Positions 40,630 to 59,452 are shown, counted from the stretch's first letter. The stretch is 64,000 nt of DNA from Thermoplasmata archaeon (GCA_046704665.1 JBJKRJ010000048.1:28829-92828), one strand, 5' to 3'. Program-made: numbers and translations. Notes: generated by a model from the sequence alone, not told the origin.

Positions 40630-40643
40630 GCCGAACGACGCGC

Positions 40644-43702: not shown

Positions 43703-43880
43703 CGAGTCCTCGCCGTGCTCAACGCCCTGCGCCGGTCCGAGGGGGGCCGTTCACGGCCGAGAATGCATCTCCCCCGAAGTGAGGTGGAAACCGGAGGACC
43801 GTCGGGACGCATCGGGCGTATCGGGATCCGTGGGTCCAAGCCGTCCGCCCGGGATCGGCAGGCGACCCGCCCGGCCCTCT

Positions 43881-44660
43881 TCAGATCGCGTTCACGAGAA
43901 GTCCGACCGCGAAGCCGAGACCGACCCCGACATAGGCAAGCCGTGTGCGGAGCGCGTTCTCCACCGCGTCCGCCCCGGGGCGGAAGACGACCCGGAACAT
44001 GGGGATGATCGCGTAGAGACAGGTCCCGATGGCCAGCGCATCGAAGGCGACCGTGAGATAGCTCGAGGTCCAGTAGAATCCGATCCCCGCCCCCAGGATC
44101 GTCGGGACGCCTCCGAGGAGAAAGTACGCCGAGAAGAGCCCGACCTGTCGCTCCTTCGCTCCCAAGAGGGGTCCGGCGATAGGGAACCCCTCGGTGACGT
44201 TCTGAAGGAAGAACCCGGCGAAGATGACCGCGAGCAGGCCGGAGAGGCCCGCCGCCCAGCTCGCACCGAGGACCATGCCCTCGGTCAGGTTCTGGAATCC
44301 GATGGCCAGGGCGACGATGAGGGCGGTCGAGGTCGCCGAGCGCTCCTCGGCCGCGCGGGAAGACCGGCCCGAGTGCTCAAGGAAGAACAGCGCGAAGAAC
44401 GCCCCGATGACGCCCACGCCGAAGAGAAGGGTGAGCGCCGGGTCGGCGACGAAGTCGCCGTGCGCGTAGAGGATGCCGCTGACGTCTCCCCAGACATCGG
44501 CCAGGACGAAGATCAGGATGCCGATGGCGGCAGCGGTGAGAAGATTCACTAGGCGGAACGTCCGGCTCCTTCGGAGGACGAGGGGAAGAGAGAGGAAGAT
44601 CGCGAGTCCCAGAATCGTCGCGAGCACCAGCAGCTCGACCAACCCGCCGGACGCGGCCAT
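43881..44660 (-). CDS. ZIP-family zinc/iron permease.
   Basis: 259 aa with 8 TM helices and the HSxxxGxxLG-type ZIP signature region (GFQNLTEGMVLGAS). Confidence 0.8.
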   Translation of the reverse strand: MAASGGLVELLVLATILGLAIFLSLPLVLRRSRTFRLVNLLTAAAIGILIFVLADVWGDVSGILYAHGDFVADPALTLLFGVGVIGAFFALFFLEHSGRSSRAAEERSATSTALIVALAIGFQNLTEGMVLGASWAAGLSGLLAVIFAGFFLQNVTEGFPIAGPLLGAKERQVGLFSAYFLLGGVPTILGAGIGFYWTSSYLTVAFDALAIGTCLYAIIPMFRVVFRPGADAVENALRTRLAYVGVGLGFAVGLLVNAI

Positions 44661-44734
44661 GCCGACCCCTTGCCGATTTACGCAGGAGAAGGTGAGTATT
44701 TAGATGATGCGCGCGTGACGTGGCCACTCTTATG

Positions 44735-44747
44735 TTCACAGAGTGAA
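44735..44747. promoter_or_regulatory. Perfect palindrome TTCACAGAGTGAA in the divergent ZIP / HTH-regulator promoter.
   Basis: 13-bp palindrome with 5-3-5 geometry, 36 nt upstream of the regulator start. It shares the TTCACA/TGTGAA half-site with the mntH upstream region. Confidence 0.4.
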
Positions 44748-44782
44748 TTTGCCTACCCGGCCGGGGGGTTCACGACACGACC

Positions 44783-45547
44783 ATGTCGAACCCGCGCACC
44801 GCGTCGATCGCCTGGGTGCATCTCGTGCAGGCCCTGGTGGCGCGAGAAGGTGTGGAGCAGCTCGGGCTCTCCTCCCGTCGGGTCGCCGACCTCCTCGGGC
44901 TCGCTCCTTCGGCGGTCTCGCAGTACCTGTCCGGCAAGCGCGTCGAAAAGGGGTTCCTCGAGTACTCGTCGGACGAGCGCGCCCGTTCGATCGCCCGGCG
45001 GACGATCGAGGAGCTGATCGAGGCGCAAGAGGCCGGTCGGGGGGCGACCCGGCCCGTGCTCGAGGGCGCGTCGGCCCTCTCCGAGCTCTCGGAATCGGCC
45101 GGGGGCCACGAACGCCTCCCCAAACGTCCCACCGACACGACCGAGGGCCCCCAGCTGCGCGAGCTGGCCCGGTGGCTGCGCGAGCGGGTAAAGGCCGAGC
45201 AGGTCGCGGTGACCCAGTGTATGCGGCTCGCCCAGCGAGCACGGGACGAGCTGACGCGCGCGCTGCTCCGGCAGATCGCCTCCGACAGCCTCCGGCACGC
45301 CGAGATCGTCGCGTCGCTCGCCCCGTACATCGATCGGGGAGTATCGGGAGCGTACGCCTCGGGGATCACGCGCAAGGAGATCGAGGCGCTGATCGAAGGC
45401 GAGCGCCGGGCCGAAGCCCAGGCGGACTCGGCTTCGGCGCACCGCCTCCAAGGGACCATGGCGATCCTCATCGCGAGCATGGAGGCCGACGAGCGGAAGC
45501 ATGCCGAGCTGCTCCGGGGCCTCCTGAACTCGGGGTTCCGACCCTAG
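44783..45547 (+). CDS. Transcriptional regulator: N-terminal XRE-type HTH fused to a ferritin-like (di-iron/ExxH) domain.
   Basis: HTH RRVADLLGLAPSAVSQYLSGKR. C-terminal helices carry paired E..H motifs (DSLRHAEIV and EADERKHAELL). Confidence 0.6.
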   Translation: MSNPRTASIAWVHLVQALVAREGVEQLGLSSRRVADLLGLAPSAVSQYLSGKRVEKGFLEYSSDERARSIARRTIEELIEAQEAGRGATRPVLEGASALSELSESAGGHERLPKRPTDTTEGPQLRELARWLRERVKAEQVAVTQCMRLAQRARDELTRALLRQIASDSLRHAEIVASLAPYIDRGVSGAYASGITRKEIEALIEGERRAEAQADSASAHRLQGTMAILIASMEADERKHAELLRGLLNSGFRP

Positions 45548-45883
45548 CACGCCCTACGTCGCCGGCGCAAGAGCCCTCGACCGACACCGAAGATCGGCGG
45601 CTCTCGTTGGTTCCACCACCGACACGACCATCAACGACCTTGTGCTCTCGTAGACTATGGACCACCGGCTCGGTCCGGTCCGATCGCTGCCGTGCGGCCC
45701 CCTCGATCCCGGAAGCCCCGCGACCCGATCTTCCGCTGCGGAACTCGGCCCGGGACGCCCTCGCTCGAGCTGTCGGGAGGCGGAACGCGGACGGGCTACC
45801 CCGTGCCACTCGGGTCGGAGACGGCGGTGGGGACTCGGCACCGCCCGCGGACCGGATCCAGGGAGAACGGTCGGAGGGAATGC

Positions 45884-46393
45884 ATGACGCGGGCGCGCGT
45901 CCTGCGGATCAACCGATTCACCGTCATGGCGATGCTCCAAGCGGCGCGAGCCCGTCATCTCGGCCTTCCCGAGGAGTCGGCGTTCTCCTGGGGGCTCAAC
46001 CGGTCGATCTTCTACGCCGCCGCAAAGCGGGGGTTCCGGGGCGCCAGCGGTTCCCCGAAGACCGGAGAGGTCGCGGGCCACGCCGAGGGGAGAGCGAGCT
46101 ATTCGCTCGGCGACGAGATCGCCTACCGGGATCCCGCGAGCTCCGCGCTCGCCTTCACGATCGGAGGCAAGACCCAGACCGCCGCGGAGTTCCGCCGGCA
46201 GATCGCAAGCCGGTTCGGGGAGGAACCGGAGTTTCGCAAGGCGTGGGAGGAGGCGCTCCGCTACGTCACCGGATTCCCCGAGGAGGTCCTGCGCTCGCAA
46301 CACGAGTTCTACTCGGTCGTCTACCGACCCCGAAGGGACGCGTGGGTCCTCGAGTGGACCGGCCGGTACGGCCGGCCTCCACCGGCGCCCTGA
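45884..46393 (+). CDS. Hypothetical protein.
   Basis: ATG at 45884 preceded by GGAGGG. 169-aa ORF with a balanced composition (K/F/Y/W present). The overlapping minus-strand ORF 45554..46303 is R-rich and rejected. Confidence 0.45.
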   Translation: MTRARVLRINRFTVMAMLQAARARHLGLPEESAFSWGLNRSIFYAAAKRGFRGASGSPKTGEVAGHAEGRASYSLGDEIAYRDPASSALAFTIGGKTQTAAEFRRQIASRFGEEPEFRKAWEEALRYVTGFPEEVLRSQHEFYSVVYRPRRDAWVLEWTGRYGRPPPAP

Positions 46394-46432
46394 ACGGGGA
46401 CCCCCGCGGGTCGGGGACGGAGCGGCGGGGGA

Positions 46433-46819
46433 TCAGTCGACCGACGCGACCGCCTCGACCTCGAGCAGGAGCTCGGGGTGGAAGAGGCGCCGGACCTCGA
46501 CCGCCGTGCTGGCGGGTGGATGGTCCGGGTCGATGAACCGATCGCGAACCGCCCGTACCTCCGGTAGGTGGGAGATGTCGAGGACGAAGTACGTGAGCTT
46601 CACGACGTCCCGGAACGTCGCCCCGGCCGACTGGAGCGCGAGGTCGAGGTTCCGGAACACCTGTTCGGACTGGGCCCGGTAGTCCCCGCGGCCCACGACC
46701 TCCCCGGCGGCATCGAGCGCGACCTGGCCCGCGATGAAGACGAGCTTGCCTCCGTGCGCTTCGGCGACGTGGGAATAGGCGCGGGACGGGGCGAGCGTGG
46801 GCGGGTTGTGGACCTTCAC
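46433..46819 (-). CDS. RidA/YjgF family protein.
   Basis: GTG start at 46819 (VKVHNPP..). Conserved AYSHVAEAHGGKLVFIAGQVALD..TYFVLDISHLPEV.. Confidence 0.75.
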   Translation of the reverse strand: MKVHNPPTLAPSRAYSHVAEAHGGKLVFIAGQVALDAAGEVVGRGDYRAQSEQVFRNLDLALQSAGATFRDVVKLTYFVLDISHLPEVRAVRDRFIDPDHPPASTAVEVRRLFHPELLLEVEAVASVD

Positions 46820-46850
46820 CCGACCGCCCACGTGCCTTTCCCCGCCGCGA

Positions 46851-47231
46851 CTAGAGCCACTCGGCTTCGACCGTGCGTTCGCCGCCGGCATCACCGGTGT
46901 TCACCGTGGACTTCCGCTCGATGAGCATCACCTCGGCCTCCTCGGGGGCGACGGGCATGTGCTCCACGCCCCGCGGAACGACGAAGAACTCGCCCTCGCT
47001 CAGCGGCACCTCCCGGTCCCGAAGTCGGACCGTGAACGCACCGCGGGTGACGAGGAAGAGCTCGTCCTCGGTGTCGTGCCGGTGCCAGAGGAACTCGCCC
47101 TGGAACTTGACGAGCTTGATGTAAAAGTCGTTCACCTCGCCGACGATCCTGGGCGTCCAGTGCTCGGAGAACCGGCCGAACTTCTCGGCGAGGTTCACCT
47201 TGTCGCCCCCGTGGGTCCGTAGGTCGGGCAT
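46851..47231 (-). CDS. Cupin-domain protein.
   Basis: Cupin motifs WHRHDTEDELFLVTRG..FFVVPRGVEHMP. Confidence 0.65.
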   Translation of the reverse strand: MPDLRTHGGDKVNLAEKFGRFSEHWTPRIVGEVNDFYIKLVKFQGEFLWHRHDTEDELFLVTRGAFTVRLRDREVPLSEGEFFVVPRGVEHMPVAPEEAEVMLIERKSTVNTGDAGGERTVEAEWL

Positions 47232-47324
47232 GCGGCCGGCGGACGTCACGCCCCTGCCATGAAGATGACGGATGCGGACGACGGCGCCCGAAGCGAGCGG
47301 GGGGGCCGCTCCGCCGGGTCGCGG

Positions 47325-48275
47325 TCACGACGGCCCGAGGACCCCCTCGGCCGGGGGGATCGGGCGGCGGACCTCCCGGTAGGCCTTCCACAGGCTGTGC
47401 CCCCCGATCACTCCGACCACGCCGACGATCAGCACCGTCGCGTAGCCGATCGAGTCGAGGGTCGGGATCGGGTTCCCGGTGGAGAGCGCGAAGCTGCTGA
47501 GCCAGGGAAGGGCGGCGACCGCGGCGCCGACCACGGCGAACGCGAGACCGCCGATGTAGAGGGTCCGTGCGGCGGTCGACCGTCCGATGTGCTGCATCTG
47601 CCGCAGGGTCAGCTTCTTGAGCCGTGCGAGACGGGCGAAGAGGGCGCCGGTGAGCATCTGCATGACCATCGTGCCGAGACCGAACATCGTTCCTACGAGC
47701 GCGGCCCACCCGACATTCGGCATCTGGGGGGCGAGGATGAACACGATGATCGTTGCGAACCCTCCGAACCCCCATCCCGCGACGAAGCCGTGGACGATGG
47801 CCATCCGCAGGGGGATCGGCTTGACCCCGGATTCCGGAACGGGTGTGCGTTCCGCCGTGGTGGTGTGGTGGGTGTGGTCCCGGAAGAAGCCGCCCAGGAG
47901 GCGTTCCATCCAATGGTCGAACGGGAGGTGGATGTCCGAGCCCCGCAGGAGGTACCACCCGGCGACGAACATCACGACGCCCACGAGCACATAGACCGGT
48001 CCGTCGAGGTTGTAGACGGTGTAGATGGCCGCGAGTCCGAGGAACCCGAGGGCCGTCAGGATCGTTCGTTGCAGAGCGAACCCACCGGAAAAGGTGAGAC
48101 CGGCCTTCAATCCCCCCCGGCTCGAGTAGCTCCCGATCGAGTAGCTGAACGTGATCGGCCAGGTGTGCTCATCGGGGGTGCCTCCGTGCAGGAGCCCGAG
48201 GAGGAATCCGAGACCGAGGATCACGGGGATCGTGAGACCCCCGGTCGGATCGAGAACGAAGTCGAGGCTCCACAT
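47325..48275 (-). CDS. NicO/RcnA-family nickel/cobalt transporter.
   Basis: 316 aa with 6-8 TM helices, the N-terminal HGGTPDEH metal motif and a His-rich loop (RDHTHHTTT). Confidence 0.6.
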   Translation of the reverse strand: MWSLDFVLDPTGGLTIPVILGLGFLLGLLHGGTPDEHTWPITFSYSIGSYSSRGGLKAGLTFSGGFALQRTILTALGFLGLAAIYTVYNLDGPVYVLVGVVMFVAGWYLLRGSDIHLPFDHWMERLLGGFFRDHTHHTTTAERTPVPESGVKPIPLRMAIVHGFVAGWGFGGFATIIVFILAPQMPNVGWAALVGTMFGLGTMVMQMLTGALFARLARLKKLTLRQMQHIGRSTAARTLYIGGLAFAVVGAAVAALPWLSSFALSTGNPIPTLDSIGYATVLIVGVVGVIGGHSLWKAYREVRRPIPPAEGVLGPS

Positions 48276-48281
48276 GTCGGT

Positions 48282-48716
48282 TCACTCCCTCCGCGACGCG
48301 GCGTGGCCGCACGGAGGGATCGGCTCTCCGTGGGGGCACTCCGTCGGGTGGCCCTCGGCACGGCAGAGACGCTCCACGGTGGCATGGTCGAGCGCGAGGT
48401 CGACCTCCCGCGCGGCCGCGCAGAGCTCCCGCTCCGGAAAGCCGAGGCGGGCGAACATGTGCTCCGCGACCCGATGATGACGCTGGTACTCGGCCGCGCA
48501 CGCACGTCCCCGGGCGGTGAGTCGGGACTTCCCACGGTGGCGGTCCACGAGACCCATCTGCTCGAGCACGGTGACGTGCGCGAGCGCCGAGGGCGGGCGG
48601 ACCCGTAGTCCGGCCGCGATCGTGTTGAGCGAGACGCCGCGGGCCGGTGTCTCGTGGGTCCGGATCGTCTCGAGCGCGTCGACCTGTCGCCGCGTGAGAC
48701 GCTCGAGCGGTTCCAT
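48282..48716 (-). CDS. DtxR/MntR-family metal-dependent transcriptional regulator.
   Basis: N-terminal wHTH (LTRRQVDALETIRT..), dimerisation/metal-site helix (YQRHHRVAEHMF) and a C-terminal Cys/His tail (ECPHGEPIPPCGH). It sits 6 nt upstream of the NicO-like gene on the same strand. Confidence 0.8.
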   Translation of the reverse strand: MEPLERLTRRQVDALETIRTHETPARGVSLNTIAAGLRVRPPSALAHVTVLEQMGLVDRHRGKSRLTARGRACAAEYQRHHRVAEHMFARLGFPERELCAAAREVDLALDHATVERLCRAEGHPTECPHGEPIPPCGHAASRRE

Positions 48717-48833
48717 GGATTGGGTACGACCGGATGATATTTAAGTGTGACCTAATTTTTAGCATCTACGAAAGAACGGGTCGGCTCCCCGGGGTCAGAA
48801 GGGCGGGTCCCTGTCCCTCGTGGTTCGCGGTTC

Positions 48834-48860
48834 GGGGCGGTGGGATGGGTTGGGTTCGGG
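48834..48860 (+). other. Canonical G-quadruplex motif in the DtxR / small-ORF intergenic region.
   Basis: GGGGCGGTGGGATGGGTTGGGTTCGGG: five G3+ tracts separated by 1-3-nt loops. It lies inside a ~385-bp non-coding, GC-rich stretch. Confidence 0.5.
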
Positions 48861-49101
48861 ATCCACGGGCCGGGTGCGCACGTCACATCTTGCCGACCGC
48901 CAGGCGTCGCGGTCGACCACCGCGCACCGGGCCTCGCTCCCGTCCCCTCCGTGGCCGCGGCCCCTCCCGATCGCCCCGAGGCCCTCTCGGCCGGGACCTC
49001 GGGGGGGCCGGGATCGGGGGATATCGGGGCCGGTGGCCCGTGCACGCGGGACCCTAGGCGTTGAAATGCCGGAGGGGTATCCATCCCCGCGGAGAGAGCG
49101 T

Positions 49102-49338
49102 ATGTCCGAGGAATCCGGGGAGATCGGGAAGGGACTGATGGAGGGCCTCATCGAGGCGCTGTCGGACAAGCACGGCCAGCTCGATGTCCGACTGCAGGGA
49201 TTGACCGTTAGCGTCGGAGAAAGCCGCCTCGCGGTCCGGCTCTCGGGAGGCGTCTCGGTCACGATCCACATGCGGGACCTGAGCGATGCTGAGAAGGACG
49301 CCCACGCCGCCGCGAACATCGCCCGGGTGCAATCCTAA
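49102..49338 (+). CDS. Small hypothetical protein (78 aa).
   Basis: ATG at 49102 ([47 protein letters not shown]..). Composition is acidic and balanced. No known domain. Confidence 0.4.
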
Positions 49339-49787
49339 ACGAACCGTCGGAGCTTCCACAACGCCGTCGGGCTCACGTGCACGTGCCCGGTCAGGGCGCT
49401 CACGTCCCTCCCGAGCCGGATCATCTCGTGCGGGCCGTCCCGCACGCTCACATGCCAGCCCGACCGCGCCAGGGCCGAGGGAACTCCCCGCTCCTCCCAG
49501 AGCCGGAAGTGCACCTCGGGACGGGCCGAACGCTCCCCCTGCGTCGCTTCGAGAAGGGGGGCGATCTGGACGGTCAGGTTGCGCTTCTCGCCATCGATCA
49601 CCGCGAACGGAGCCCCGTCCAGGTCGGCCTGCGCCGTCCCGCCCGCGACCCGGCGAAGCAGCTCGACGAGCACCGATCCCACGGACTCCGAGGTCACGAC
49701 CCGTTCCCGGGACCCGCCGTCCCACGGACGGACTTCCCGACCGGAACGGATCGATCCGACCTCCTTGGTGCTTTCGGTCGCATGCAT
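49335..49787 (-). CDS. Hypothetical protein (150 aa).
   Basis: Protein-like composition. Contains HVSV and HVHVSP motifs of unclear significance. It overlaps an R-rich 342-aa ORF in another frame, which is rejected. Confidence 0.3.
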
Positions 49788-49918
49788 GCGGCGCTCCGAT
49801 CACGAGCCGAGAACGTCGCGCGGTCGGCCCCGGCGTCGCGCCGCCGGATCCGTCTCGAGCGTCGGTCGGTCCGGACGGAGGAAGGAATGGCGAAATACCC
49901 TGCCGGGGTACGCACTCC

Positions 49919-50905
49919 ATGAAATCGCGGCAGCTCGGCCGTTCGGGGCCCCGGGTGTCGGCGCTCGGACTCGGGTGCATGGGGATCTCCCAATCGTACG
50001 GACGGCCGAACGACGCCGAGTCGCGGGCCACGATCGCCCGGGCGCTCGAGCTCGGGATCACGTTCTTCGACACCGCGGACATCTACGGGCCGTACACGAA
50101 CGAGGAGTTCGTGGGACAGGCGCTCCGGGAGCACCGGGACCAGGTAGTCCTGGCGACCAAGTGTGGGTTCGTCCCCGGCGAGGGAGGGGGTGCGAACCGC
50201 ATTGACGGGAGTCCGGAGCACATCCGCGCGGCGTGCGACGCGAGCTTGAAGCGCCTCGGCACACGATGGATCGACCTCTACTACCTTCACCGGGTCGACC
50301 CGAAGACCCCCATCGAAGAGAGCGTGCGCGCGATGGCCGGGCTCGTGAAGGAGGGGAAGGTGCGCCACGTGGGGCTTTCGGAGGTGAGCCCGACGACGCT
50401 CCGGCGGGCCCACGCCGTCCATCCGATCACCGCCGTCCAGAGCGAGTACTCGCTCTGGACCCGGGACCCGGAGGACGGGATCCTTGCGACGTGCCGCGAG
50501 CTCGGGGTGGGTTTCGTGCCGTTCAGCCCACTCGGCCGCGGGATCTGGTCCGGGGCCGTGCGTTCGCTCGAGGAGCTGCCGTCCGACGACTTCCGGCGAG
50601 GGATCCCCCGCTTCCAGGCGGCGAGCCTCGGAAAGAACCTCGACCTGGTGGACCGGTTCGCTCAGCTCGCGGCCGAGAAGGGTTGCACCCCGGCCCAGCT
50701 CGCGCTCGCATGGCTTCTTTCTCGCGGCGAGGACGTGGTGCCGATCCCCGGTACGAAGCGGACGAAGTACCTGGAGGAGAACGTCGGGGCGGTCGACGTC
50801 GGGCTCTCGCGGGACGACCTCGCCCGTATCGAGGCGACCGTGCCTCGCGCGTCGATCGCGGGAGAGCGATACTCTCCCGAGAGCTTCGCCCTGGTGGATC
50901 GGTAG
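49919..50905 (+). CDS. Aldo/keto reductase.
   Basis: ATG at 49919. Motifs [34 protein letters not shown] of the AKR family. Confidence 0.85.
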
Positions 50906-50987
50906 GAACCCGTCCTCGGGGCGACGGTTCGCCGTGTCAAGTCGGGCCGACGGCCGCTTCTTGAGCCCACCACCGGGTCTTGGGGCC

Positions 50988-51347
50988 ATGGCAGCTCACG
51001 TGATGTTCGCCACCCTCGACGTGAGGGGGCAGTTGACAGGGATCGGGCGCGCGCATCGGCTCGCCCGCGCGACGGTCGAGGACGGCAGACTGGTCGATTG
51101 GCAGGAAACGGAAGTGAAGTGGGACGAGTCCCACGATCTCGAGGGCGAGGGAAACCATCACGCGAGCATCGCGAAGTACCTCCTGGCCGAGAAGGCGACG
51201 GAGCTCGTCGCCGCCGGCGCCGGGCCGGGGATGCGCCTCATGCTCGAGAAGATGGGACTCCGTGTCATCCTCGCGTCGGGAACGGCTCGGGAGACCGTCA
51301 CGGCGCTCGCCCGCCTTCCGCGCTCCGTCCCCGCCGCGAGCGCGTAG
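50988..51347 (+). CDS. Dinitrogenase iron-molybdenum cofactor (NifX/NifB-like) domain protein.
   Basis: ~119 aa. MFATLDV..LGRAHRLARA..HASIAKYLLAEKATELVAAGAGPGMRLMLEKMGLRVILASG matches the Nitro_FeMo-Co small-protein family. Confidence 0.55.
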   Translation: MAAHVMFATLDVRGQLTGIGRAHRLARATVEDGRLVDWQETEVKWDESHDLEGEGNHHASIAKYLLAEKATELVAAGAGPGMRLMLEKMGLRVILASGTARETVTALARLPRSVPAASA

Positions 51348-51471
51348 GGCCCGATCGCCTCGCGCCGGCGGGGACCCGATCCTCGGGTGCGGTGCGACGG
51401 TGGTGACCGATCTCGAGAGGTCGTGGGGTGGGGCAACCGCTTAGGTCGGCCGTGACTCGCCCGCGGCGCGC

Positions 51472-51921
51472 ATGACCCCACGCAAGGTGACCGCCGCCGT
51501 GCGGATCCGACCGTACCTCCCCGGAGACTACGCGAAGGTACGTCGCCTCTGGAAGGGGGCCGGTCTGCATGACAGCCCCTCCGACCGACGGAAGGAGCTC
51601 GAGCGGGAGCGGCGGCGCGACCCGGACCTGTTTCTCGTGGCCGAGTGCCAGGGGACCCTGGTCGGGGCGGTCCTGGGCCGGTTCGACGGACGTCTCGGAT
51701 GGGTCAACCACCTCGCCGTCACGCAGGCCTCCCGGCGGCTCGGCATCGGCCGTCAGCTCATGGCAGACCTCGAGAGGAGGCTTCGGGCCAAGGGATGCCC
51801 CAAGGTCAATCTCCAGGTCGAACCCACGAACGAAGCAGCGTGCGGGTTCTACGAGCATCTCGGCTACCGTCGCCGGGAGCTCATCTTCATGGAGCGGTGG
51901 TTGCGGGGCGGACGGCCGTAA
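51472..51921 (+). CDS. GNAT family N-acetyltransferase.
   Basis: Motifs A/B: HLAVTQASRRLGIGRQLMADLERRL..GFYEHLGY. Confidence 0.75.
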   Translation: MTPRKVTAAVRIRPYLPGDYAKVRRLWKGAGLHDSPSDRRKELERERRRDPDLFLVAECQGTLVGAVLGRFDGRLGWVNHLAVTQASRRLGIGRQLMADLERRLRAKGCPKVNLQVEPTNEAACGFYEHLGYRRRELIFMERWLRGGRP

Positions 51922-51961
51922 CGGCCCACTCGGACCCCTCGATCGCCGGAAGGAGGGCCGC

Positions 51962-53005
51962 TCAGGCCCGCGTGCGACCCATCGAGTACTCGTGCACGAA
52001 GTCGGTGAGCGCGCCCACGCACTCGGCCCGGGCCTCGGGGGGTACACCGTGTCCCAGGTTGAAGACATGGCCGCGGCCGTCCGGCAGTTCGTCGAGGACC
52101 TCGCGCGCGAGACGGCGGACCGTCGGAACGTCCGTCGTCAGCGCGGTCGGGTCCAGGTTTCCCTGGAGCGTCACGGTGCTCCCGGCCTGGCGCCGCACCC
52201 AACCGAGAGGGACCCTCCAGTCGACGCCGAGGGCGGTCGCGTGGGAGGCGGCGGCCAGGTCGACGAGATGCACCGAGGCCGTGCTGAAGTAGATCGTCGG
52301 CGCCCCGAGCGGCTCGAGCGCATCGAAGATCCTCTGCAGCCGTGGTAGGATCATCGTCTCGAACGCGGAGCGGGGAAGCTGACCGACCCAGGTGTCGAAC
52401 AGCTGGAGCGCCTCCGCTCCCGCCCGGGCCTGCAGGCGGAGGTAGTCGATCGTCACCTCCGTGAGCCGGTCGAGCAGGCGAGCGAAGCCGGCGGGATCGG
52501 AGTGCAGCCAGCCCCGGGTCGCGGCGAAATCGCGCGAGGCGCCGCCCTCGACGAGGTAGCTCGCGAGCGTGAACGGGGCGCCGGCGAACCCGAGGATCGG
52601 CCGGTCGGGCCGGAGCTGGCGGAACCGACGGATCGCCTCGGCGACGAACCCGGCGTCGCGCTCGGCGTCGAAGGGGCGCAGCCGATCGACCGCCTCCGGG
52701 GTCCGCACCGGCGGCGAGACGACCGGTCCGACCCCCGGGTCGATGCGAAACTCGACCCCGAGACCGAAGTAGGGGACCGTGATGTCGGCGAAGACGACCG
52801 CGGCGTCGAGGTCGAACCGCTCGAGCGGCTCGATCGTGACCTGCGCGGCGAGCTCGGGGGTCCGGGCGATCTCGAGGATCTCGTGCTTCTTTCGCAGCTC
52901 CCGGTACCCCGGGAGGTGGCGGCCGGCCTGCCGCATGAGCCAGATCGGGACCGCGTCGACCGGCTCCCCGCGGAGGGCGCGCACAAGCCGTTCGCGTCGG
53001 TCCAT
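51962..53005 (-). CDS. hemE: Uroporphyrinogen decarboxylase.
   Basis: N-terminal PIWLMRQAGRHLPGYRELR (URO-D signature 1) and overall UroD family match. 347 aa. Confidence 0.85.
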   Translation of the reverse strand: MDRRERLVRALRGEPVDAVPIWLMRQAGRHLPGYRELRKKHEILEIARTPELAAQVTIEPLERFDLDAAVVFADITVPYFGLGVEFRIDPGVGPVVSPPVRTPEAVDRLRPFDAERDAGFVAEAIRRFRQLRPDRPILGFAGAPFTLASYLVEGGASRDFAATRGWLHSDPAGFARLLDRLTEVTIDYLRLQARAGAEALQLFDTWVGQLPRSAFETMILPRLQRIFDALEPLGAPTIYFSTASVHLVDLAAASHATALGVDWRVPLGWVRRQAGSTVTLQGNLDPTALTTDVPTVRRLAREVLDELPDGRGHVFNLGHGVPPEARAECVGALTDFVHEYSMGRTRA

Positions 53006-54309
53006 CAGCCGCCCCGCAGGGAGGAGAACCCCGCCCTCGCGGCCCGCTTAAGGAGGTTGATCTCATGGGCGCCGATCGCCGTCGACACGAACGCCGTCTC
53101 GAGCGGGGACGGGGGGAGGTAGACCCCCTGGGCCAGCAGGGCGTGGAAGAACCGGGCGTACCGCGGTCGGTCGACCCGGAGCGCCTCCCGGTAGTTCTCC
53201 GGCGAGTCCGGCCCGAAGAAGACCCCGAGCATCGAGCCGATCCGCCGCAGATGGAACGAGCCCACGCCGGCCTCCGCCGCGGACCGGGTCCAGGCCGTCT
53301 CGATCTCGGCGGCCCGCTCCTCGAGCCGGCGGTACAGGGCCGGTGTCAGCGCATCGAGGGTCGCAGCGCCGGCGGCCATGACGAGGGGGTTCCCGGAGAG
53401 CGTGCCGGCCTGGTAGACCGGGCCGAGCGGGGCGACCCTCTCCATGACCTCCCGGCGCCCGCCGTACGCCCCGATCGGGAGCCCGCCGCCGATCACCTTC
53501 CCGAACGTGACGAGGTCGGCATGTACCCCGAGCTCCGAGTGGATCGTCCCCCGGCGCAGGCGGAAGCCGGTGATCACCTCGTCGGCGATGAGAAGTGCTC
53601 CGGACCGGTGGCAGAGCCGTTCGAGGCCGGGAAGGAAGCGGGGGGTCGGAGGAACCAGGTTCATGTTCGCCGCGATCGGCTCCACGACGACCCCGGCGAT
53701 CTCCCCTTCGTGGGCGTCGAAGAGCGCCGAGGTCGCATCGAGGTCGTTGAACGGAGCGACGAGGGTGTCGCTCACGATCGACGCGGGGACCCCGGCCGAG
53801 TCGGCGATCGCCGCCGTCGCGACCCCCGAGCCCGCGCGCGCGAGCAGGCCGTCCGAGTGACCGTGGTAGCCTCCCTCGAACTTGACGACCTTCGCACGCC
53901 CGGTGTAGCCGCGGGCCGCTCGGACCGCCGACATGACCGCCTCGGTGCCCGAGTTCACGAACCGGAGGAGGTCGATCGAGGGCACCGCCGCGCGGATCCG
54001 TTCGGCGAGCTCGTGTTCCGATGGGGTCGGAGCCCCGTAGCTCGTGCCCCGCCCCGCGGCGCGTTGGATCGCCCGGACGACGGACGGCGGTGCGTGCCCG
54101 AGCAGGGCCGCTCCCCAGGAACCGACGAGGTCGACGAACCGATGCCCGTCCAGGTCCCAGAGGTAGGCGCCCTTCCCCCGTTGGAAGAAGATCGGCGTCC
54201 CTCCGACCGCTCCGAACGAGCGCACGGGGCTGTCGACCCCGCCGACCAGGCTCTTCCGGGCCCGGTGGAACGCGCGCCGGGACTCCGGGAGGCCGGTCCG
54301 GCGCGTCAC
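53005..54309 (-). CDS. hemL: Glutamate-1-semialdehyde 2,1-aminomutase.
   Basis: GTG start at 54309 overlapping the hemQ stop. Motifs GGVDSPVRSF..FEGGYHGHSDGLLA..LIADEVITGFR..TFGKVIGGGLPIGAYGG (PLP lysine). Confidence 0.85.
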   Translation of the reverse strand: MTRRTGLPESRRAFHRARKSLVGGVDSPVRSFGAVGGTPIFFQRGKGAYLWDLDGHRFVDLVGSWGAALLGHAPPSVVRAIQRAAGRGTSYGAPTPSEHELAERIRAAVPSIDLLRFVNSGTEAVMSAVRAARGYTGRAKVVKFEGGYHGHSDGLLARAGSGVATAAIADSAGVPASIVSDTLVAPFNDLDATSALFDAHEGEIAGVVVEPIAANMNLVPPTPRFLPGLERLCHRSGALLIADEVITGFRLRRGTIHSELGVHADLVTFGKVIGGGLPIGAYGGRREVMERVAPLGPVYQAGTLSGNPLVMAAGAATLDALTPALYRRLEERAAEIETAWTRSAAEAGVGSFHLRRIGSMLGVFFGPDSPENYREALRVDRPRYARFFHALLAQGVYLPPSPLETAFVSTAIGAHEINLLKRAARAGFSSLRGG

Positions 54310-55151
54310 GGAAGCCCGGCCGCGAGATCGAGGACGCGTCGGGGCGGGGCCGCCACGCACGTGAAGATCGGGGTCTCGAGCGCCGTGTACCGGCTCGCCT
54401 CCGAGGGGCGGAGCGCCTCGACGAGATCGAGGAACTCGGCGGGCGAGTCGCCTTCGAACGCGAGGATGAACTCCGGGTCGTCGAGCCCGAAGGAGTAGCC
54501 CGTGTGGATCTGGACCTCCGGGAAGCGGTGGCCGATCCGGAAGTGCTCGCCCATGATGCGGCGTCGCTCCTCGAACGGGACCGAGTACCACTCCCGCTTC
54601 TTCACGAACGGATAGACGAAGAGGTACCGCTTGCCGATCGGCCGGACGGTCCCCTCCTCCTGGCCGCCGTGGCCGTGCCCTCCCAGGTACTCCGAGCGCC
54701 GCCCCATCCCGAGGTAGGCGAACGGGAACTCAAGGTACCCCCCGGCGCCCCCTCCCCACAGGCGCGCCTCGAACTCCTGGAACGCCTCGAGGCGGGGGCT
54801 CGTCATCCAGAAGAGGCCGTGGACCCCGGCCCTCGTCCCGACGAGCGAGTAGGTGCGCAGCGCGAGGTCGGAGGGCAGGTCGGTCGTGCGGCGCTCGAGG
54901 TCCGCGAGGTCCCGGGTGCGCTCTTCGACCGGGCGCCGGCGCCATTCCGGGCGGAGATGCCAGAACAGGTACCGCACGAAGTCCCGCGGCCCCTCCCCCG
55001 AGGTGCCCGGGGCGGCGCCCGGCGACTCGGTCACGAGGTTCCCTCCGGGGGAGGCGGCAGTTCCCCCGCGAAGTAGGTCAGGATGAGGCTCGCACCGGCC
55101 CGCCGGATCGCCCCCAGGGTCTCCTGCGCGACGGCCGAGGCATCCAGCCAT
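54306..55151 (-). CDS. hemQ: Chlorite-dismutase family protein, HemQ (coproheme decarboxylase)-like.
   Basis: Family signature KRYLFVYPFVKKREWYSVPFEERRRIMGEHFRIG..SFGLDDPEFILAFEGDSPAEFLDLVEALRPSEASRYT..TPIFTCV. The N-terminal ~40 aa of the track ORF are G/P-rich, so the true start may be internal. Confidence 0.75.
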   Translation of the reverse strand: MAGCLGRRAGDPGGDPAGRCEPHPDLLRGGTAASPGGNLVTESPGAAPGTSGEGPRDFVRYLFWHLRPEWRRRPVEERTRDLADLERRTTDLPSDLALRTYSLVGTRAGVHGLFWMTSPRLEAFQEFEARLWGGGAGGYLEFPFAYLGMGRRSEYLGGHGHGGQEEGTVRPIGKRYLFVYPFVKKREWYSVPFEERRRIMGEHFRIGHRFPEVQIHTGYSFGLDDPEFILAFEGDSPAEFLDLVEALRPSEASRYTALETPIFTCVAAPPRRVLDLAAGLP

Positions 55152-56044
55152 CCGCGGGCCGCGGCCGCGAGGACCATGGCGTACTCACCGCTCACCTGGA
55201 ACGCCGCGATCGGGAGATCGAACCTCGCCCGGGCCGCCGCGATGATGTCGAGGTACGGAAGGGCGGGCTTCACCATCAGGATGTCCGCTCCCTCGGCCGC
55301 GTCGAGGGCGAGCTCGCGCAACGCCTCGGTGCGGTTCCGCGGGTCCATCTGGTAGCCCTTTCGGTCCCCGAAGGCGGGCGCCGAGCCGGCGGCGTCGCGG
55401 AACGGGCCGTAGAAACCGGAAGCGAACTTCGCGGCGTACGCGAGGATGCCGACCTCGCGATGGCCGGCCCCATCGAGCGCGGACCGGAGGGAGGCGACCT
55501 GATGGTCCATCATCGCGCTCGGTGCGACCAGGTCCGCGCCGGCCGAGGCATAGGCGACCGCGGTCCGTCCGAGCAAGGGAAGCGTCCGGTCGTTGTCGAC
55601 CCGTCCTCCGACGACCACTCCGCAGTGCCCGTGGTCGGTGTACTCGCACAAACAGACGTCCGCGATCACCGTGACATCCGGTGCCGCTGCTTTGATCGCC
55701 CGGATCGCGCGGGGAACCGGCCCCGCCTCCTCCCACGCGCCCGTGCCCTCGGGATCCTTCCGGGACGGAATGCCGAAGAGAACCACCGCTCGGACCCCGT
55801 GGCCCCGCAGACGGACGACCTCTTCGACCGTCGCGTCGACCGAGCGACGGGCGAGTGCCGGGAGCTCCGGCGAAGCTCCGCCCTCCACGCGCTCCGCGAC
55901 GAACAGCGGTCGGATCAAGTGGGCGACCGAGACATCCGACTCCGCGACCAGGTCCCGGATCGATGCCTTGGCGCGCAGGCGACGGGGTCGATGCACGGTC
56001 GCCCCGGGCTCACCGGCGTCTGCGGGAGAGGCCCTGTGAGGCAT
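55031..56044 (-). CDS. hemB: Porphobilinogen synthase (delta-aminolevulinate dehydratase).
   Basis: ATG at 56044. Active-site region VTVIADVCLCEYTDHGHCG and Schiff-base lysine region ADILMVKPALPYLD. The longer track ORF upstream is R/S-rich. Confidence 0.85.
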   Translation of the reverse strand: MPHRASPADAGEPGATVHRPRRLRAKASIRDLVAESDVSVAHLIRPLFVAERVEGGASPELPALARRSVDATVEEVVRLRGHGVRAVVLFGIPSRKDPEGTGAWEEAGPVPRAIRAIKAAAPDVTVIADVCLCEYTDHGHCGVVVGGRVDNDRTLPLLGRTAVAYASAGADLVAPSAMMDHQVASLRSALDGAGHREVGILAYAAKFASGFYGPFRDAAGSAPAFGDRKGYQMDPRNRTEALRELALDAAEGADILMVKPALPYLDIIAAARARFDLPIAAFQVSGEYAMVLAAAARGWLDASAVAQETLGAIRRAGASLILTYFAGELPPPPEGTS

Positions 56045-56798
56045 CGCCGAGCGACTTCTCAAGCAACTTTGTAAAGCCTTCCTCGGAACTTTCCTTCGGG
56101 GAGTCGACCCGACGGATCCCGCTCGCGCGCATCGCGCGGGCCGTACGCGCTCCCATCGCATACCCCCGGACCGTCCCACGGTATCGGAGGAATACCGCCC
56201 TCCCCACCATCCTTCGGAAGCCGACGAGCGCTGAGGGGCTCGTGACGATCCAGACCGGTATCGAGCCGACCGACTCCCGCCGGCGTCGGGGAAGCGGCGC
56301 AGCCTCCCGGGTGCGATAGACGATACGGTCCACCACACGGGCCCCGCGGGCCCGGAGCCGCCGGGCGAGATCCGGCCCGGCGCGGTCCGAACGCAGGTAG
56401 ACGACACGTCGTCCTCGAACCGGTCCGACCCCGGCGAGCAGCGCGGTCGCGCCACCTCGGCCCACCCGCGCGATGTGGGGGACACCCGCGCCCCGAAGCG
56501 CGCGGGCGCTCTCGGGTCCGACCGCGATCAGCTCCGGCATGGTTCGCAACCGTCGCATCCACTCCGGGTGCGCGGCGAGGAAGGTCGTGACGACGGCCCG
56601 ACTGGTGACGATCCACAGATCGCCGGGGGGACGCTCTCTGAGCCAGCTCGGAACGGACCCGACCGACACCGGTTCGGTCCAGATCGCGCGCAGCCGTACG
56701 GGTCTCCACCCGCGACGGGCGAGCCGTCGCTCGAGGGCGACGAGCGATCCCGGGGAGGCGATGAGCGCGATGCGCCGGTCGGTCGCGGAGCGCGTCAC
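56010..56798 (-). CDS. hemD: Uroporphyrinogen-III synthase.
   Basis: 262 aa with HemD-family two-lobe repeats. It lies between hemC and hemB, and its stop overlaps the hemB start. Confidence 0.7.
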   Translation of the reverse strand: MTRSATDRRIALIASPGSLVALERRLARRGWRPVRLRAIWTEPVSVGSVPSWLRERPPGDLWIVTSRAVVTTFLAAHPEWMRRLRTMPELIAVGPESARALRGAGVPHIARVGRGGATALLAGVGPVRGRRVVYLRSDRAGPDLARRLRARGARVVDRIVYRTREAAPLPRRRRESVGSIPVWIVTSPSALVGFRRMVGRAVFLRYRGTVRGYAMGARTARAMRASGIRRVDSPKESSEEGFTKLLEKSLGDASQGLSRRRR

Positions 56799-57712
56799 GG
56801 TCCTGCGCGACGTCCGGGGAGGAGGTCGGAGGCGCCCCCGACCTCGGCGAGCCGTCGGCCGACCTCTTCTCCCGTCCTCTGGGCTCGGGCGGAGGGGCTA
56901 CGAAGGGAGAACGACACCCGGCGCCGTCCGTCGGGGGAGAACAGGGAGGCCCGGAGGAAGAGCCGGCCGGAGCGGACACGCCCGAGGGCACCGAGGGGAA
57001 GGTTACAGTCCCCACCGAGCGAGGAGACGACGGCCCGCTCGGCCTCGACCTCCTGCCGGGTCGGTCGGTGATCGATCCGTTCGACCGTCCGCCGGGCGAA
57101 CCGATCTCCTGTGCGCACCTCCACCGCGAGCGCGCCCTGGCCGGGCGCCGGGAGCCATCGGGGCGGCCCGAGATACTCGGAGATCCGGTCGTGCCAGCCG
57201 AGGCGAAGGAGCCCGGCCGCGGCGAGGACCACGCCGTCCAGTCCCTGGATCCCGATCTTTTCGATGCGGGTACCGATGTTGCCACGGACCGGAACGACCT
57301 CAAGGTCGGGCCGCTCCCGAAGGATCTGCGCTCTCCGACGCACGCTGCTCGAGCCGATACGGGCCCCCCGCGGAAGCGTGGCGAGCGTCCCCGGACCTCG
57401 TAGGACCACACAGTCCCGAGGGTCGCCGCGCCGGGGATAGGCCCCTACCTCCACCCGACGGGCGGGGCGCGCCGGCAGGTCCTTCGAACTGTGCACCGCG
57501 AGATCGACCTCCCCGTCCTCGAGGCGGCGGTCGATCGCATCGGTGAAGTCGAGGGTCGGGCTCGTCCGGCGCACCCGATCCCCTGCGGTGCGGAGGAGCA
57601 CGGTCTCGTAGGTGACGTCGGGCGCCGCCCGCCGGAGCGCGCGGAGCACGAGCTCCGTCTGGGTGACCGCGAGAACGCTCGACCGCGTGCCGACGCGGAG
57701 CCGTTCGGTCAC
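56795..57712 (-). CDS. hemC: Hydroxymethylbilane synthase (porphobilinogen deaminase).
   Basis: RVGTRSSVLAVTQT..VHSSKDLP..GNIGTRIEKI..GQGALAVEVR and the cofactor Cys in GGDCNLPLG. Confidence 0.85.
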   Translation of the reverse strand: MTERLRVGTRSSVLAVTQTELVLRALRRAAPDVTYETVLLRTAGDRVRRTSPTLDFTDAIDRRLEDGEVDLAVHSSKDLPARPARRVEVGAYPRRGDPRDCVVLRGPGTLATLPRGARIGSSSVRRRAQILRERPDLEVVPVRGNIGTRIEKIGIQGLDGVVLAAAGLLRLGWHDRISEYLGPPRWLPAPGQGALAVEVRTGDRFARRTVERIDHRPTRQEVEAERAVVSSLGGDCNLPLGALGRVRSGRLFLRASLFSPDGRRRVSFSLRSPSARAQRTGEEVGRRLAEVGGASDLLPGRRAGP

Positions 57713-58995
57713 GAACCGGGGTCGGGCTCTCGCAGTATCTCAAGTACTCGGCGACGCAACCGGTCCGCCTCGGGGCCCGGGGGAAGCGCACGCAGCTCCT
57801 CCGTGGGGCCCGACAGGAGCCGACGGACCAGGCGGTCCGAGAGTCGCTCCATCGCCACCCGTGCCTCCTCCGAGAGCTCCCCCGCATGGGCCAGCGCCCG
57901 CACGAGCTCCTCCCGACGGACCTCGTCGCCACGGCGTCGGAGGTCCGTGACCCACGGCTCGACCGCCTCCCGGGCGAACTGCGCCGCGCTTTCCGAGGAC
58001 GAGGCGTCCGCGGCGCGACGGATCGCGTCGAGCCGGTGCTCGGGTAGCCGGCCCCGCGGGAGCCCGTCGAGGTCGACGAGCTCCGCGCCGGGCCGCCGAC
58101 CGACCCGCGGATCGATGTTCCGGGGCACTCCCAGGTCCACGAACCAGCGGGGGCCACGGTACGGGTCGGCCGGCAGCTCTGCCATCCCGAGAACCCGTCC
58201 GGTCGACTTCGCCGCCGTGACCACCGCGCTCGCCTCCGCGAGGGCTTGGACCATCGCCTCCGAGGGGAGGACGCTGAGATGCCACTGCTCGGTCCACTGG
58301 GGGTCGGGGGGCCGGTGGCGGTACAGCACCGTGACCTCGGCGATCTCCGCGACCCTCTCGGCGACCTTGCGTCCGACCGTTCCCGAGCCCACGACGAGGA
58401 CCCGGTGAGGGCCCCCGGTGAGACGAGGTCCCAGCCACTGAACGGCCAGGTCGGCCACCGAGGTCGTCTCGCCACCATCGGTCCGGGGCGGGCTCCGGGC
58501 CGCTGCGAGAAGGAGCGGACGGAGGATCGGGCGGGGGCTGCGGCTCATCACGTTCGAGGCAGCGGACCGCACCTGCTCGCGGATCTCCCGCTCGCCCGAA
58601 GCGATGGAGTCGAGGCCGGAGGAGATCCGGTGGAGGTGGTAGACGACGTCCGCGTCCTCCCGAATCTCCCACGTCCCCGGAGGACCCCATCGCCCCGTGA
58701 AGCGCGCGGCCGCGTCGTGACCCTGCGTCACGACGAGGAGGAGGACCCTTTGGCAGGTACGGAGCAGTGCGGTCTCGAGCACGCGCGGGTCGGAGTCGAA
58801 CTCGTGACGGGCCCGTTCGGGGGTGACCTCCGCAAGGCTCTCCTCGAGCCCGGCAACCCCCAGGCGGGAAAGCCGCCGTTCCAGCGCTACCAAGGAGATC
58901 CGCTCGACCGGTCTCCCCCGGGGCCGGACGGGCTCGGGGCGCGGACCGGGGGCAGGCTGGGAGGCGACCCGGAGCTCCGCCCCACTCCCCGACAT
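57709..58995 (-). CDS. hemA: Glutamyl-tRNA reductase.
   Basis: ISLVALERR..RTCQRVLLLV..HLHRISSGLDSIASGEREI, the NADPH site VLVVGSGTVGRKVAERV and a C-terminal dimerisation helix. Confidence 0.85.
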   Translation of the reverse strand: MSGSGAELRVASQPAPGPRPEPVRPRGRPVERISLVALERRLSRLGVAGLEESLAEVTPERARHEFDSDPRVLETALLRTCQRVLLLVVTQGHDAAARFTGRWGPPGTWEIREDADVVYHLHRISSGLDSIASGEREIREQVRSAASNVMSRSPRPILRPLLLAAARSPPRTDGGETTSVADLAVQWLGPRLTGGPHRVLVVGSGTVGRKVAERVAEIAEVTVLYRHRPPDPQWTEQWHLSVLPSEAMVQALAEASAVVTAAKSTGRVLGMAELPADPYRGPRWFVDLGVPRNIDPRVGRRPGAELVDLDGLPRGRLPEHRLDAIRRAADASSSESAAQFAREAVEPWVTDLRRRGDEVRREELVRALAHAGELSEEARVAMERLSDRLVRRLLSGPTEELRALPPGPEADRLRRRVLEILREPDPGS

Positions 58996-59452
58996 GACCG
59001 AGCGTTGGAGGGCGAACGCCCTTTATTCGGTCCAGTACGAACCGACCGCCCGGTGGGAGGACTACCTTTGGCCCCTCCCTCGGAGACCACGGCGGCCGCG
59101 CGCAGCTCCTTCCATCACAAGCTCTCTCCTGCTCCGGGAGACCTCGGGAACGGTCGGTGCCGAGACCCCTCGGAACGGCCGTCGCAGTCGTTCCCACGGG
59201 GCGCACACGTCTACGGAAGGCTCCCCGAGCCCCCGCACACGTTCGTCAACCGATGGATGGGACGTACGTCGTGATATCGTATGGCACGCGGTGTTCGCGC
59301 CCCTCGCGATCGCGAAAGGCTAAGTACTCGATATTTTACCGACTAAAGCAATTCGACATTCATGATCGCGGTCCCCGTTTCCGAGTCCCGTCGCGCACGT
59401 CGTCCGCTGGGCGATCGGGGTAGGAACGCTCCCTACGAGAACCGGTGAGAGC

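Follow-up and report, generated by a model that had tools for sequence, protein, structure and literature searches.

By which route does an archaeon make heme when its early heme genes lie in one operon with the genes for uroporphyrinogen decarboxylase (UroD, encoded by hemE) and for a protein of the chlorite dismutase (Cld) family? The coproporphyrin-dependent (CPD) pathway is well characterized in Firmicutes and Actinobacteria, and the siroheme/Ahb route is found in most archaea. The question is raised by 64,000 nt of Thermoplasmata archaeon DNA (GCA_046704665.1 JBJKRJ010000048.1:28829-92828; hereafter, the window), in which seven full-length open reading frames (ORFs) occupy positions 51962-58995 on the minus strand. 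Family scans of approximately 60 window ORFs against Pfam or NCBIfam, together with a survey of related loci, indicated that this is probably the CPD-type heme operon of a Thermoplasmata clade, from the 3' end of which the coproporphyrin ferrochelatase gene (cpfC) has been lost in the window and in one relative, L006 (GCA_027377435.1).

Our scans confirmed the gene order given by an initial annotation of the window, hemA-hemC-hemD-hemB-hemQ-hemL-hemE, on one strand with overlapping stop and start codons (Table 1). Four junctions (hemA/hemC, hemC/hemD, hemB/cld, and cld/hemL) are 4-nt GTGA overlaps, hemL and hemE overlap by 1 nt in TGATG, and hemD and hemB overlap by 35 nt, as they also do in the gene calls of relatives. 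These overlapping junctions indicate that the seven genes are almost certainly co-transcribed and translationally coupled as a single operon. Of the A/T runs in the 457-bp region between hemA and the neighboring MFS gene, just two reach 6 nt or more, and one of these, AATAAAGG, lies where an archaeal TATA box would be expected for a leaderless or short-leader mRNA. UroD, an enzyme of the CPD pathway, is encoded by the last gene, and its best PDB match was the Bacillus subtilis enzyme (2INF, 283 bits). HemB carries a Zn-type, Cys-rich metal site, DVCLCEYTDHGHCG. HemA is the most divergent protein of the operon (34-55% identical to the HemA proteins of relatives); its score against the best NCBIfam glutamyl-tRNA reductase model was 113 bits, below the cut-off of 429, and the catalytic-Cys motif is kept (Cys81 in TCQR). 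The HemA ORF also has a Pro/Arg-rich N-terminal extension of approximately 60 residues, and the true start codon may be located further downstream.

In the fifth product, the PF06778 match spans residues 46-227 of 242. The best PDB match of this Cld-family protein was a 243-residue coproheme decarboxylase (ChdC, also named HemQ; 9MHR/9MHQ/9MIQ, E = 1e-23), and it also matched the ChdC of Corynebacterium diphtheriae (CdChdC; 6XUB, E = 3e-16); Listeria ChdC ranked next, followed by Ta0507 of Thermoplasma acidophilum (3DTZ) and true chlorite dismutases. The similarity to these ChdC structures suffices to assign the fold, and the size of the protein agrees with the approximately 240 aa of a two-ferredoxin-fold member of the Cld family. 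In a HMMER alignment with CdChdC, with chain indices shifted to the published numbering (offset 2), Tyr141 of the YPF motif corresponded to the catalytic Tyr135 (equivalent to SaChdC Tyr145), His164 to the proximal His158, and His120 to the distal His118, so the catalytic Tyr and proximal His expected of a ChdC are both present. Among the window protein and its 120 closest homologues (n = 121; those with source names are from Thermoplasmata archaeon or Euryarchaeota archaeon), His164, His169, and His177 were kept in all 121 sequences, Tyr141 and His120 in 120 each, and His122 in 113. The hallmark of a functional chlorite dismutase is a distal Arg, which in the Nitrospira enzyme (NdCld) is Arg173, 13 residues from the proximal His160 (PMC4793301). 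The residue 13 positions after His164 is His177, in the segment PEVQIHTGYS, which contains no Arg; the correspondence with Arg173 was derived from this spacing and the gap-free alignment with CdChdC, not from a direct alignment with NdCld. By these hallmarks, the protein looks like an actinobacterial-type ChdC and not like a chlorite dismutase. The initial annotation had described a HemQ-type protein beside UroD in an archaeal operon, and the peptide that it quoted was located in this ORF; the PDB matches and active-site residues uphold that description.

The archaeal context was also correct. The window, with a G+C content of approximately 70% throughout, encodes the archaeal marker fibrillarin (25479-26135) and a tRNA-Arg(TCG) on the minus strand (10082-10182), the length of which (101 nt) suggests an intron. 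Homologues of the Cld protein number in the thousands; identity to it is 61-88% among the best 120, and every one of these with a named source is a "chlorite dismutase family protein" of Thermoplasmata archaeon or Euryarchaeota archaeon. The contig of the nearest relative (88% Cld identity) derives from a soil metagenome. The host is an uncultured high-GC Thermoplasmata lineage.

We found the same gene order in dozens of Thermoplasmata metagenome-assembled genomes (MAGs) and in every related Thermoplasmata locus examined, and hemB and hemL flanked the Cld gene in all related operons. To judge from this distribution, a large Thermoplasmata clade has this as its standard heme operon, usually with cpfC as an eighth and last gene. 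Among the contigs found through Cld homologues (L002-L007 and L088), L002/L003 (GCA_035623855.1) carry the same seven genes followed by a ferrochelatase gene that overlaps the hemE stop codon, and L007 is arranged likewise. In L004/L005, hemE is followed by a radical-SAM/SPASM gene, a gene for a CopD-like membrane protein, and a ferrochelatase gene on the opposite strand; L006 has the seven genes without ferrochelatase, like the window, and the L088 contig ends inside hemE. We also used an alignment of three ferrochelatases from these relatives to search GTDB genomes, one for each species, and mapped the hem genes by tblastn. All 14 Thermoplasmata loci obtained (L008-L020 and L031) had the order hemA-hemC-(hemD)-hemB-cld-hemL-hemE-ferrochelatase as far as each contig extends; these loci contain ferrochelatase by construction, and the informative outcome is the invariant order and the lack of any ferrochelatase gene at a distance from the operon. 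Six further MAGs syntenic with the window (L091-L096) and L097 carry the operon with ferrochelatase. The ferrochelatase start was at, or no more than approximately 40 nt from, the hemE stop codon in L002, L007-L020, and L091-L097. In a search for a conserved flanking gene that might encode an alternative oxidase, no family apart from the hem genes and ABC transporters was common to many of the 23 loci that we clustered by ORF, with an ORF caller that is crude at high GC.

The relatives' eighth gene product scored above the cut-off of TIGR00109 (the hemH equivalog). Its PDB matches to CpfC of B. anthracis, B. subtilis, and Listeria reached 170-186 bits versus approximately 62 bits for human PpfC, and it carries a proximal Tyr in GYGSP (AYGTP in Bacillota). 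A proximal Tyr is the signature of Firmicutes CpfC (PMC10427985). From these features, we consider the eighth gene to be that of a Firmicutes-type, CpfC-like coproporphyrin ferrochelatase.

In the window, a 40-bp junction and a convergent GNAT gene follow hemE where relatives carry cpfC. The Logan assembly of run SRR31309758 was 100% identical to the window over positions 41962-54511, and since that assembly is independent, the junction is not an assembly artefact of the window. The ancestral neighborhood, as seen in L002 and L091-L096, consists of genes for fibrillarin, L-PSP, DUF885, GTP cyclohydrolase II, a 232-241-aa protein, a zinc-ribbon protein, and glyoxalase next to ferrochelatase-hemE. 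Matching landmarks lie in the window at 25479-31275, 36244-36639, and 38827-39513, and approximately 12.4 kb (39514-51961) separates the homologue of the 232-aa protein from hemE. This interval encodes thioredoxin, a VIT1-rubrerythrin protein, Nramp, a ZIP-like protein, a DtxR/MntR-like regulator, a 6-TM (transmembrane) protein, a cupin, L-PSP, an aldo-keto reductase, and the GNAT protein, and part of this Fe/Mn-homeostasis gene block is shared with L006. The synteny and the partly shared block indicate that the ancestor common to the window lineage and L006 had already lost cpfC from the 3' end of the operon. We also considered the 316-aa ORF adjoining the DtxR/MntR-like gene as a divergent chelatase; its approximately six TM segments and lack of a Pfam match ruled it out.

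In the pathway that we propose, HemA, HemL, HemB, HemC, and HemD would convert glutamyl-tRNA to uroporphyrinogen III, which HemE would decarboxylate to coproporphyrinogen III. Oxidation of the latter to coproporphyrin III and subsequent iron insertion would yield coproheme. The predicted ChdC would then convert coproheme to heme b in a peroxide-dependent reaction, in which Tyr141 would carry the radical, His164 would ligate the iron, and His120 would act as the distal base. In the window lineage and L006, cpfC has been removed from the 3' end, with other genes, mostly for Fe/Mn homeostasis in the window, now in its place; we infer that a copy resides elsewhere in this genome. The coproporphyrin-dependent branch proposed in the initial annotation is supported by UroD, by the ChdC-type protein, by the Firmicutes-type CpfC encoded eighth in relatives, and by the absence of ahb and siroheme genes from the window.

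Several observations weigh against this pathway. With regard to iron insertion, tblastn with two Thermoplasmata ferrochelatases and the Pfam survey revealed no CpfC/HemH match, remnant, or relocated copy in the 64-kb window. Each of five close ferrochelatase homologues (P0122, P0124, P0128, P0129, and P0130) was either linked to the operon or located on a 1-4-kb contig of another sample; SRR31309758 and the L006 assembly contributed none of them, and no stand-alone cpfC was found among them for the window lineage. With regard to oxidation, tblastn with five queries of the coproporphyrinogen oxidase CgoX against the window and archaeal loci (40 in all, 638 kb) gave a match only in Nitrososphaerota L036, no Thermoplasmata locus examined had a CgoX/HemY homologue less than approximately 10 kb from the operon, and no Thermoplasmata-named protein occurred among the best 120 relatives of the Nitrososphaerota CgoX query. 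The window encodes neither CgoX/HemY nor CgoN by these searches, and the Pfam survey of its ORFs gave no match to DUF1444/CgoN. The Cld protein scored below the HemQ equivalog cut-offs, with 109 versus 235 bits for HemQ_actino (NF042928), its best-scoring HemQ model, and 49 versus 253 bits for PRK12276; as judged by these models, the archaeal Cld clade is outside the curated bacterial HemQ equivalogs. The physiological role of ChdC is well described only for clades 1, 2, and 4 of four (PMC7611857), and we found no published assay of an archaeal stand-alone ChdC in the literature searched.

The oxidation step bears on a first alternative, in which the clade uses a CPD-like route free of CgoX, oxidation being performed by an undiscovered enzyme or by the His-rich Cld protein itself, with iron inserted in the window lineage and L006 by a chelatase other than HemH. 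We regard this as unlikely. A bifunctional Cld protein could draw on the practically invariant His120, His169, and His177 and on His122. A comparable gap was noted in Thermoplasma and Picrophilus, which possess hemE and hemH without hemF, hemN, hemG, hemY, or the ahb-nir genes, and whose route was called "unclear" in 2010 (PMC3004389). The operon described here sharpens the question posed since then of which enzyme oxidizes coproporphyrinogen in such archaea. In L036, cgoX lies upstream of hemA, and the operon lacks cld and ends with a TIGR04053 radical-SAM gene. An amine oxidase encoded at 940-2343, the only Amino_oxidase protein of the window, was considered as CgoX and rejected: its PDB matches were monoamine oxidases and LSD1/2, the NCBIfam protoporphyrinogen oxidase models covered only the FAD-binding N-terminus, and its neighbors suggest polyamine metabolism. 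The genes at 192-3870, which comprise a class-III aminotransferase fragment, the amine oxidase, and a saccharopine-dehydrogenase-like gene (2623-3870; weak carboxynorspermidine synthase match), look like a cluster for polyamine metabolism and not for heme synthesis. A 158-aa membrane protein of L004 (14318-14794, minus strand), encoded between the radical-SAM and ferrochelatase genes and with weak matches to CopD, DUF4149, and DUF2214, may be a porphyrinogen oxidase of the HemJ kind; the window encodes no homologue of it.

That the operons of the window and L006 have lost their terminal cpfC, with no relocated cpfC and no cgoX found, could also be read as a truncated pathway, in which no heme is made de novo or synthesis stops at coproporphyrin, and the late genes are decaying or serve another role, such as a Cld-family peroxidase or heme binding. 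This reading has a low probability. The seven ORFs are full length with high GC3 (G+C content at third codon positions), and all catalytic residues are kept. Between the window and L006, whose operons share approximately 77% DNA identity, HemE (76%) and Cld (78%) are among the best-conserved operon proteins, whereas HemA and HemD are only 54-55% identical, and the cpfC-less state has thus persisted through species-level divergence. The conservation of HemE and Cld in this cpfC-less pair argues that the genes are under selection and not decaying, with ferrochelatase encoded elsewhere; the absence of cpfC itself was observed over 64 kb (window) and 20 kb (L006) of the two genomes.

A hybrid route is very unlikely. 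Haloferax volcanii has no uroD, cgoX, or cpfC, yet its aerobic heme synthesis depends on PitA, a protein with a ChdC domain (PMC5746218), and cpfC and cgoX were likewise not found in the window; a Cld enzyme might therefore take coproheme made by the Ahb route and replace AhbD under oxic conditions, so that HemE would not be needed. However, hemE is translationally coupled within the operon and its product scores above the UroD equivalog cut-off, and relatives add a CpfC-type ferrochelatase gene directly after it. Pfam and NCBIfam scans detected no ahbA-D, uroporphyrinogen III methyltransferase (SUMT), precorrin-2 dehydrogenase (PC2-DH), or radical-SAM genes in the 64-kb window, and the Pfam tables of the related contigs' flanks contained no ahb, SUMT, or PC2-DH genes. 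The cultured Thermoplasmatales also lack ahb-nir genes (PMC3004389). An AhbD-like TIGR04053 radical-SAM protein occurred only in L004/L005 and in non-Thermoplasmata loci. This radical-SAM/SPASM protein (415 bits; the second-best model is AhbD, 221 bits) is encoded next to hemE and ferrochelatase in several phyla, including L004 (13213-14337), L005, L021, L029, L036, Gemmatimonadaceae L027/L028/L039/L065, and Actinomycetota L041/L059/L084; it may be an oxygen-independent coproheme decarboxylase of CPD organisms.

The initial annotation had further suggested that this high-GC archaeon acquired the pathway horizontally, with actinobacterial affinity. That this particular archaeon recently obtained an actinobacterial CPD set is extremely unlikely. 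The suggestion has some basis: the best NCBIfam and PDB matches of the Cld protein are actinobacterial-type ChdC, the gene order resembles the Bacillus operons, and in neighbor-joining trees (200 bootstraps; HemE, Cld, and ferrochelatase) archaeal HemE as a whole was monophyletic in 0/200 replicates, the main Thermoplasmata group being sister to three Actinomycetota sequences. However, this sister relationship appeared in only 82/200 replicates, and identity to the closest bacterial HemE does not exceed 47%, so a specific actinobacterial affinity was not borne out for HemE and is only suggested for Cld by the PDB and NCBIfam rankings. The same gene order runs through the clade at Cld identities from 57% to 88%. 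HemE of the main Thermoplasmata group was monophyletic in all 200 replicates, with the window HemE sister to that of L006 in 146/200. Archaeal Cld formed one clade in 200/200 in a set with only three bacterial sequences (the main Thermoplasmata group alone, 112/200), and the ferrochelatase clade was supported in 199/200; the L004 ferrochelatase grouped with Nitrospirae, apart from other Thermoplasmata. The operon GC3 was within 1.9 standard deviations of the 39 other window genes, and its relative synonymous codon usage correlated with theirs at r = 0.993 (mean of random seven-gene sets, 0.987). The comparison of codon usage with the flanking genes proposed at the outset thus gave no foreign signal, and there was no sign of recent transfer.

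An ancient inter-domain transfer, by contrast, is likely and forms part of the CPD reading that we prefer: the operon plausibly arose in bacteria and was later inherited vertically and exchanged among archaeal lineages. Outside Thermoplasmata, the order hemA-C-B-cld-L-E-ferrochelatase was found in Nitrososphaerota/Thaumarchaeota (L021 and L025) and in Candidatus Acetothermia (L023, where the match begins at hemC), with Cld proteins 41-57% identical to that of the window. This distribution implies, as far as gene order and identity can tell, that the operon as a unit has moved between archaeal phyla and also into or out of a bacterial lineage. In B. subtilis, the early genes of the hemAXCDBL operon have the order A-C-D-B-L (PMC10991733), and Bacillaceae loci from our ferrochelatase scan had hemE-hemH followed by hemY/cgoX. 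The archaeal order, A-C-D-B-L plus E-H, therefore looks like the Bacillus hemAXCDBL and hemEHY operons fused into one, with hemX and hemY left out and hemQ added.

Finally, the Pfam domain name Chlor_dismutase and the database name "chlorite dismutase" would favor a functional chlorite dismutase unrelated to heme synthesis, a possibility that is virtually excluded by His177 in place of the distal Arg, by the ChdC catalytic Tyr, and by the location of the gene, which lies between hemB and hemL in all related operons.

The remainder of the window contains other features. An ORF first called at 8047-10266 (adenylate/guanylate cyclase domain and TPR) overlaps the tRNA-Arg gene, and its true start is further downstream. 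A likely arsenic-resistance cluster at 32263-34974 encodes a Methyltransf_31 SAM-dependent methyltransferase (possibly ArsM-like), a low-molecular-weight phosphatase/ArsC-type protein (33400-33819), and a transporter of the SBF/Acr3 type (33871-34974). The region 17352-25402, with an N6/N4 DNA methylase gene (17352-18149), a HerA/DUF87-type ATPase gene (18742-20814), and three large ORFs without a significant Pfam match (20777-25402), may be a defense or mobile island.

Table 1. Features of the heme operon and of its 3' neighborhood, in window coordinates
Feature	Product or description	Position (strand)	Length	Evidence or remark
hemA/gtrR	Glutamyl-tRNA reductase	57709-58995 (-)	428 aa	First gene; Pfam GlutR_N, Shikimate_DH, GlutR_dimer
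hemC/hmbS	Hydroxymethylbilane synthase	56795-57712 (-)	305 aa	TIGR00212, 282 bits (cut-off 164)
hemD/uroS	Uroporphyrinogen-III synthase	56010-56798 (-)	262 aa	Pfam HEM4, 100 bits
hemB/pbgS	Porphobilinogen synthase	55031-56044 (-)	337 aa	NF006762, 439 bits (cut-off 297)
cld (chdC/hemQ)	Cld-family protein, predicted coproheme decarboxylase	54306-55034 (-)	242 aa	PF06778, 161 bits
hemL/gsaM	Glutamate-1-semialdehyde 2,1-aminomutase	53005-54309 (-)	434 aa	NF000818, 564 bits (cut-off 398)
hemE/uroD	Uroporphyrinogen decarboxylase	51962-53005 (-)	347 aa	Last gene; TIGR01464 equivalog, 361 bits (cut-off 303)
AATAAAGG	TATA-box-like element	59020-59027 (-)		25-32 nt upstream of the hemA ATG; read from sequence
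Junction 3' of hemE	Place of cpfC in relatives	51922-51961	40 bp	Followed by convergent GNAT gene, 51472-51921 (+)
VIT1-rubrerythrin gene	VIT1 fused to rubrerythrin-like domain	41131-42228
Nramp gene	Nramp	42380-43594
ZIP-like gene	ZIP-like membrane protein	43881-44660
Membrane protein gene	No Pfam match, approximately 6 predicted TM segments	47325-48275	316 aa	Adjoins DtxR/MntR-like gene
DtxR/MntR-like gene	DtxR/MntR-like regulator	48282-48716

The initial annotation had implied that such a locus is unusual. UroD and a Cld-family protein are indeed encoded together in an archaeal operon, but the combination is less unusual than implied: Storbeck et al. (2010) listed Picrophilus and Thermoplasma with hemE and hemH and without ahb genes (PMC3004389), and Ta0507 (3DTZ) has been treated as ChdC (PMC7611857). 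A 2024 survey of archaeal genomes reported complete CPD modules in some Halobacteria and one Hydrothermarchaeota, with Thermoplasmata unmentioned (PMC11459464), and textbook tables list archaea as siroheme-pathway organisms (PMC10991733, Table 1). The literature that we searched gave no description of the operon in Thermoplasmata beyond Storbeck et al. and structural reviews mentioning 3DTZ. What we add is a compact operon conserved in uncultured Thermoplasmata, a ChdC nearer to actinobacterial enzymes than to Ta0507, and a local cpfC-less variant. A large uncultured high-GC Thermoplasmata group thus appears to carry a seven- or eight-gene CPD operon, for which automatic pathway calls should allow. 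Some Nitrososphaerota carry the same operon, and several of the relatives' sequences come from a soil metagenome or from a MAG series taken to be from soil. For the window itself, the annotation was mostly correct but ordinary, the local peculiarity being the loss of cpfC.

Compared with the CPD system of Firmicutes, as represented by B. subtilis, the operon likewise encodes GtrR, HmbS, UroS, PbgS, GsaM, UroD, and ChdC, to which relatives add CpfC. The order A-C-D-B-L and then E-H is also the same; HemE matches B. subtilis best, and the relatives' ferrochelatases match the B. subtilis, B. anthracis, and Listeria structures best. It differs in its archaeal host, in forming one fused operon, in lacking hemX, and in having hemQ between hemB and hemL; unlike in the Bacillaceae loci, hemY/cgoX does not follow the archaeal hemH, and the window also lacks cpfC. 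Whereas Firmicutes ChdC has a distal Gln, the active site of the window protein is actinobacterial-like, with a distal His. It shares with C. diphtheriae ChdC (6XUB) the Cld fold family and the aligned YPF Tyr, proximal His, and distal His, but has a Gly/His-rich insertion in the distal loop (GGHGHGGQEEG) and His177 at the position of the Cld Arg, where Firmicutes have Gln and C. diphtheriae has Asn.

The cultured Thermoplasmatales (T. acidophilum, T. volcanium, and P. torridus) belong to the same archaeal class and have UroD, a HemH-type ferrochelatase, and a Cld-like protein, with no recognizable coproporphyrinogen or protoporphyrinogen oxidase and no ahb-nir genes (PMC3004389; PMC7611857). 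In contrast to the window, their genes are scattered, with hemL, hemC, and hemD adjacent and hemA and hemB apart (PMC3004389, Table 1). The window Cld protein scored 88 bits over its full length with actinobacterial ChdC versus 52 bits with Ta0507 (E = 9e-13, C-terminal 96 residues only), so that these two groups of archaeal ChdC are not closely related. PitA of H. volcanii is another archaeal ChdC-type enzyme that has been implicated in aerobic heme synthesis (PMC5746218). However, PitA is a ChdC-ABM fusion in an ahb genome without uroD, cgoX, and cpfC, whereas the window Cld protein stands alone and is encoded beside uroD, and beside cpfC in relatives. With the siroheme/Ahb route, the operon shares the five early genes leading to uroporphyrinogen III, which are often clustered in archaea (PMC3004389); unlike in that route, UroD and the predicted ChdC take the place of SUMT, PC2-DH, AhbA/B, AhbC, and AhbD in the window.

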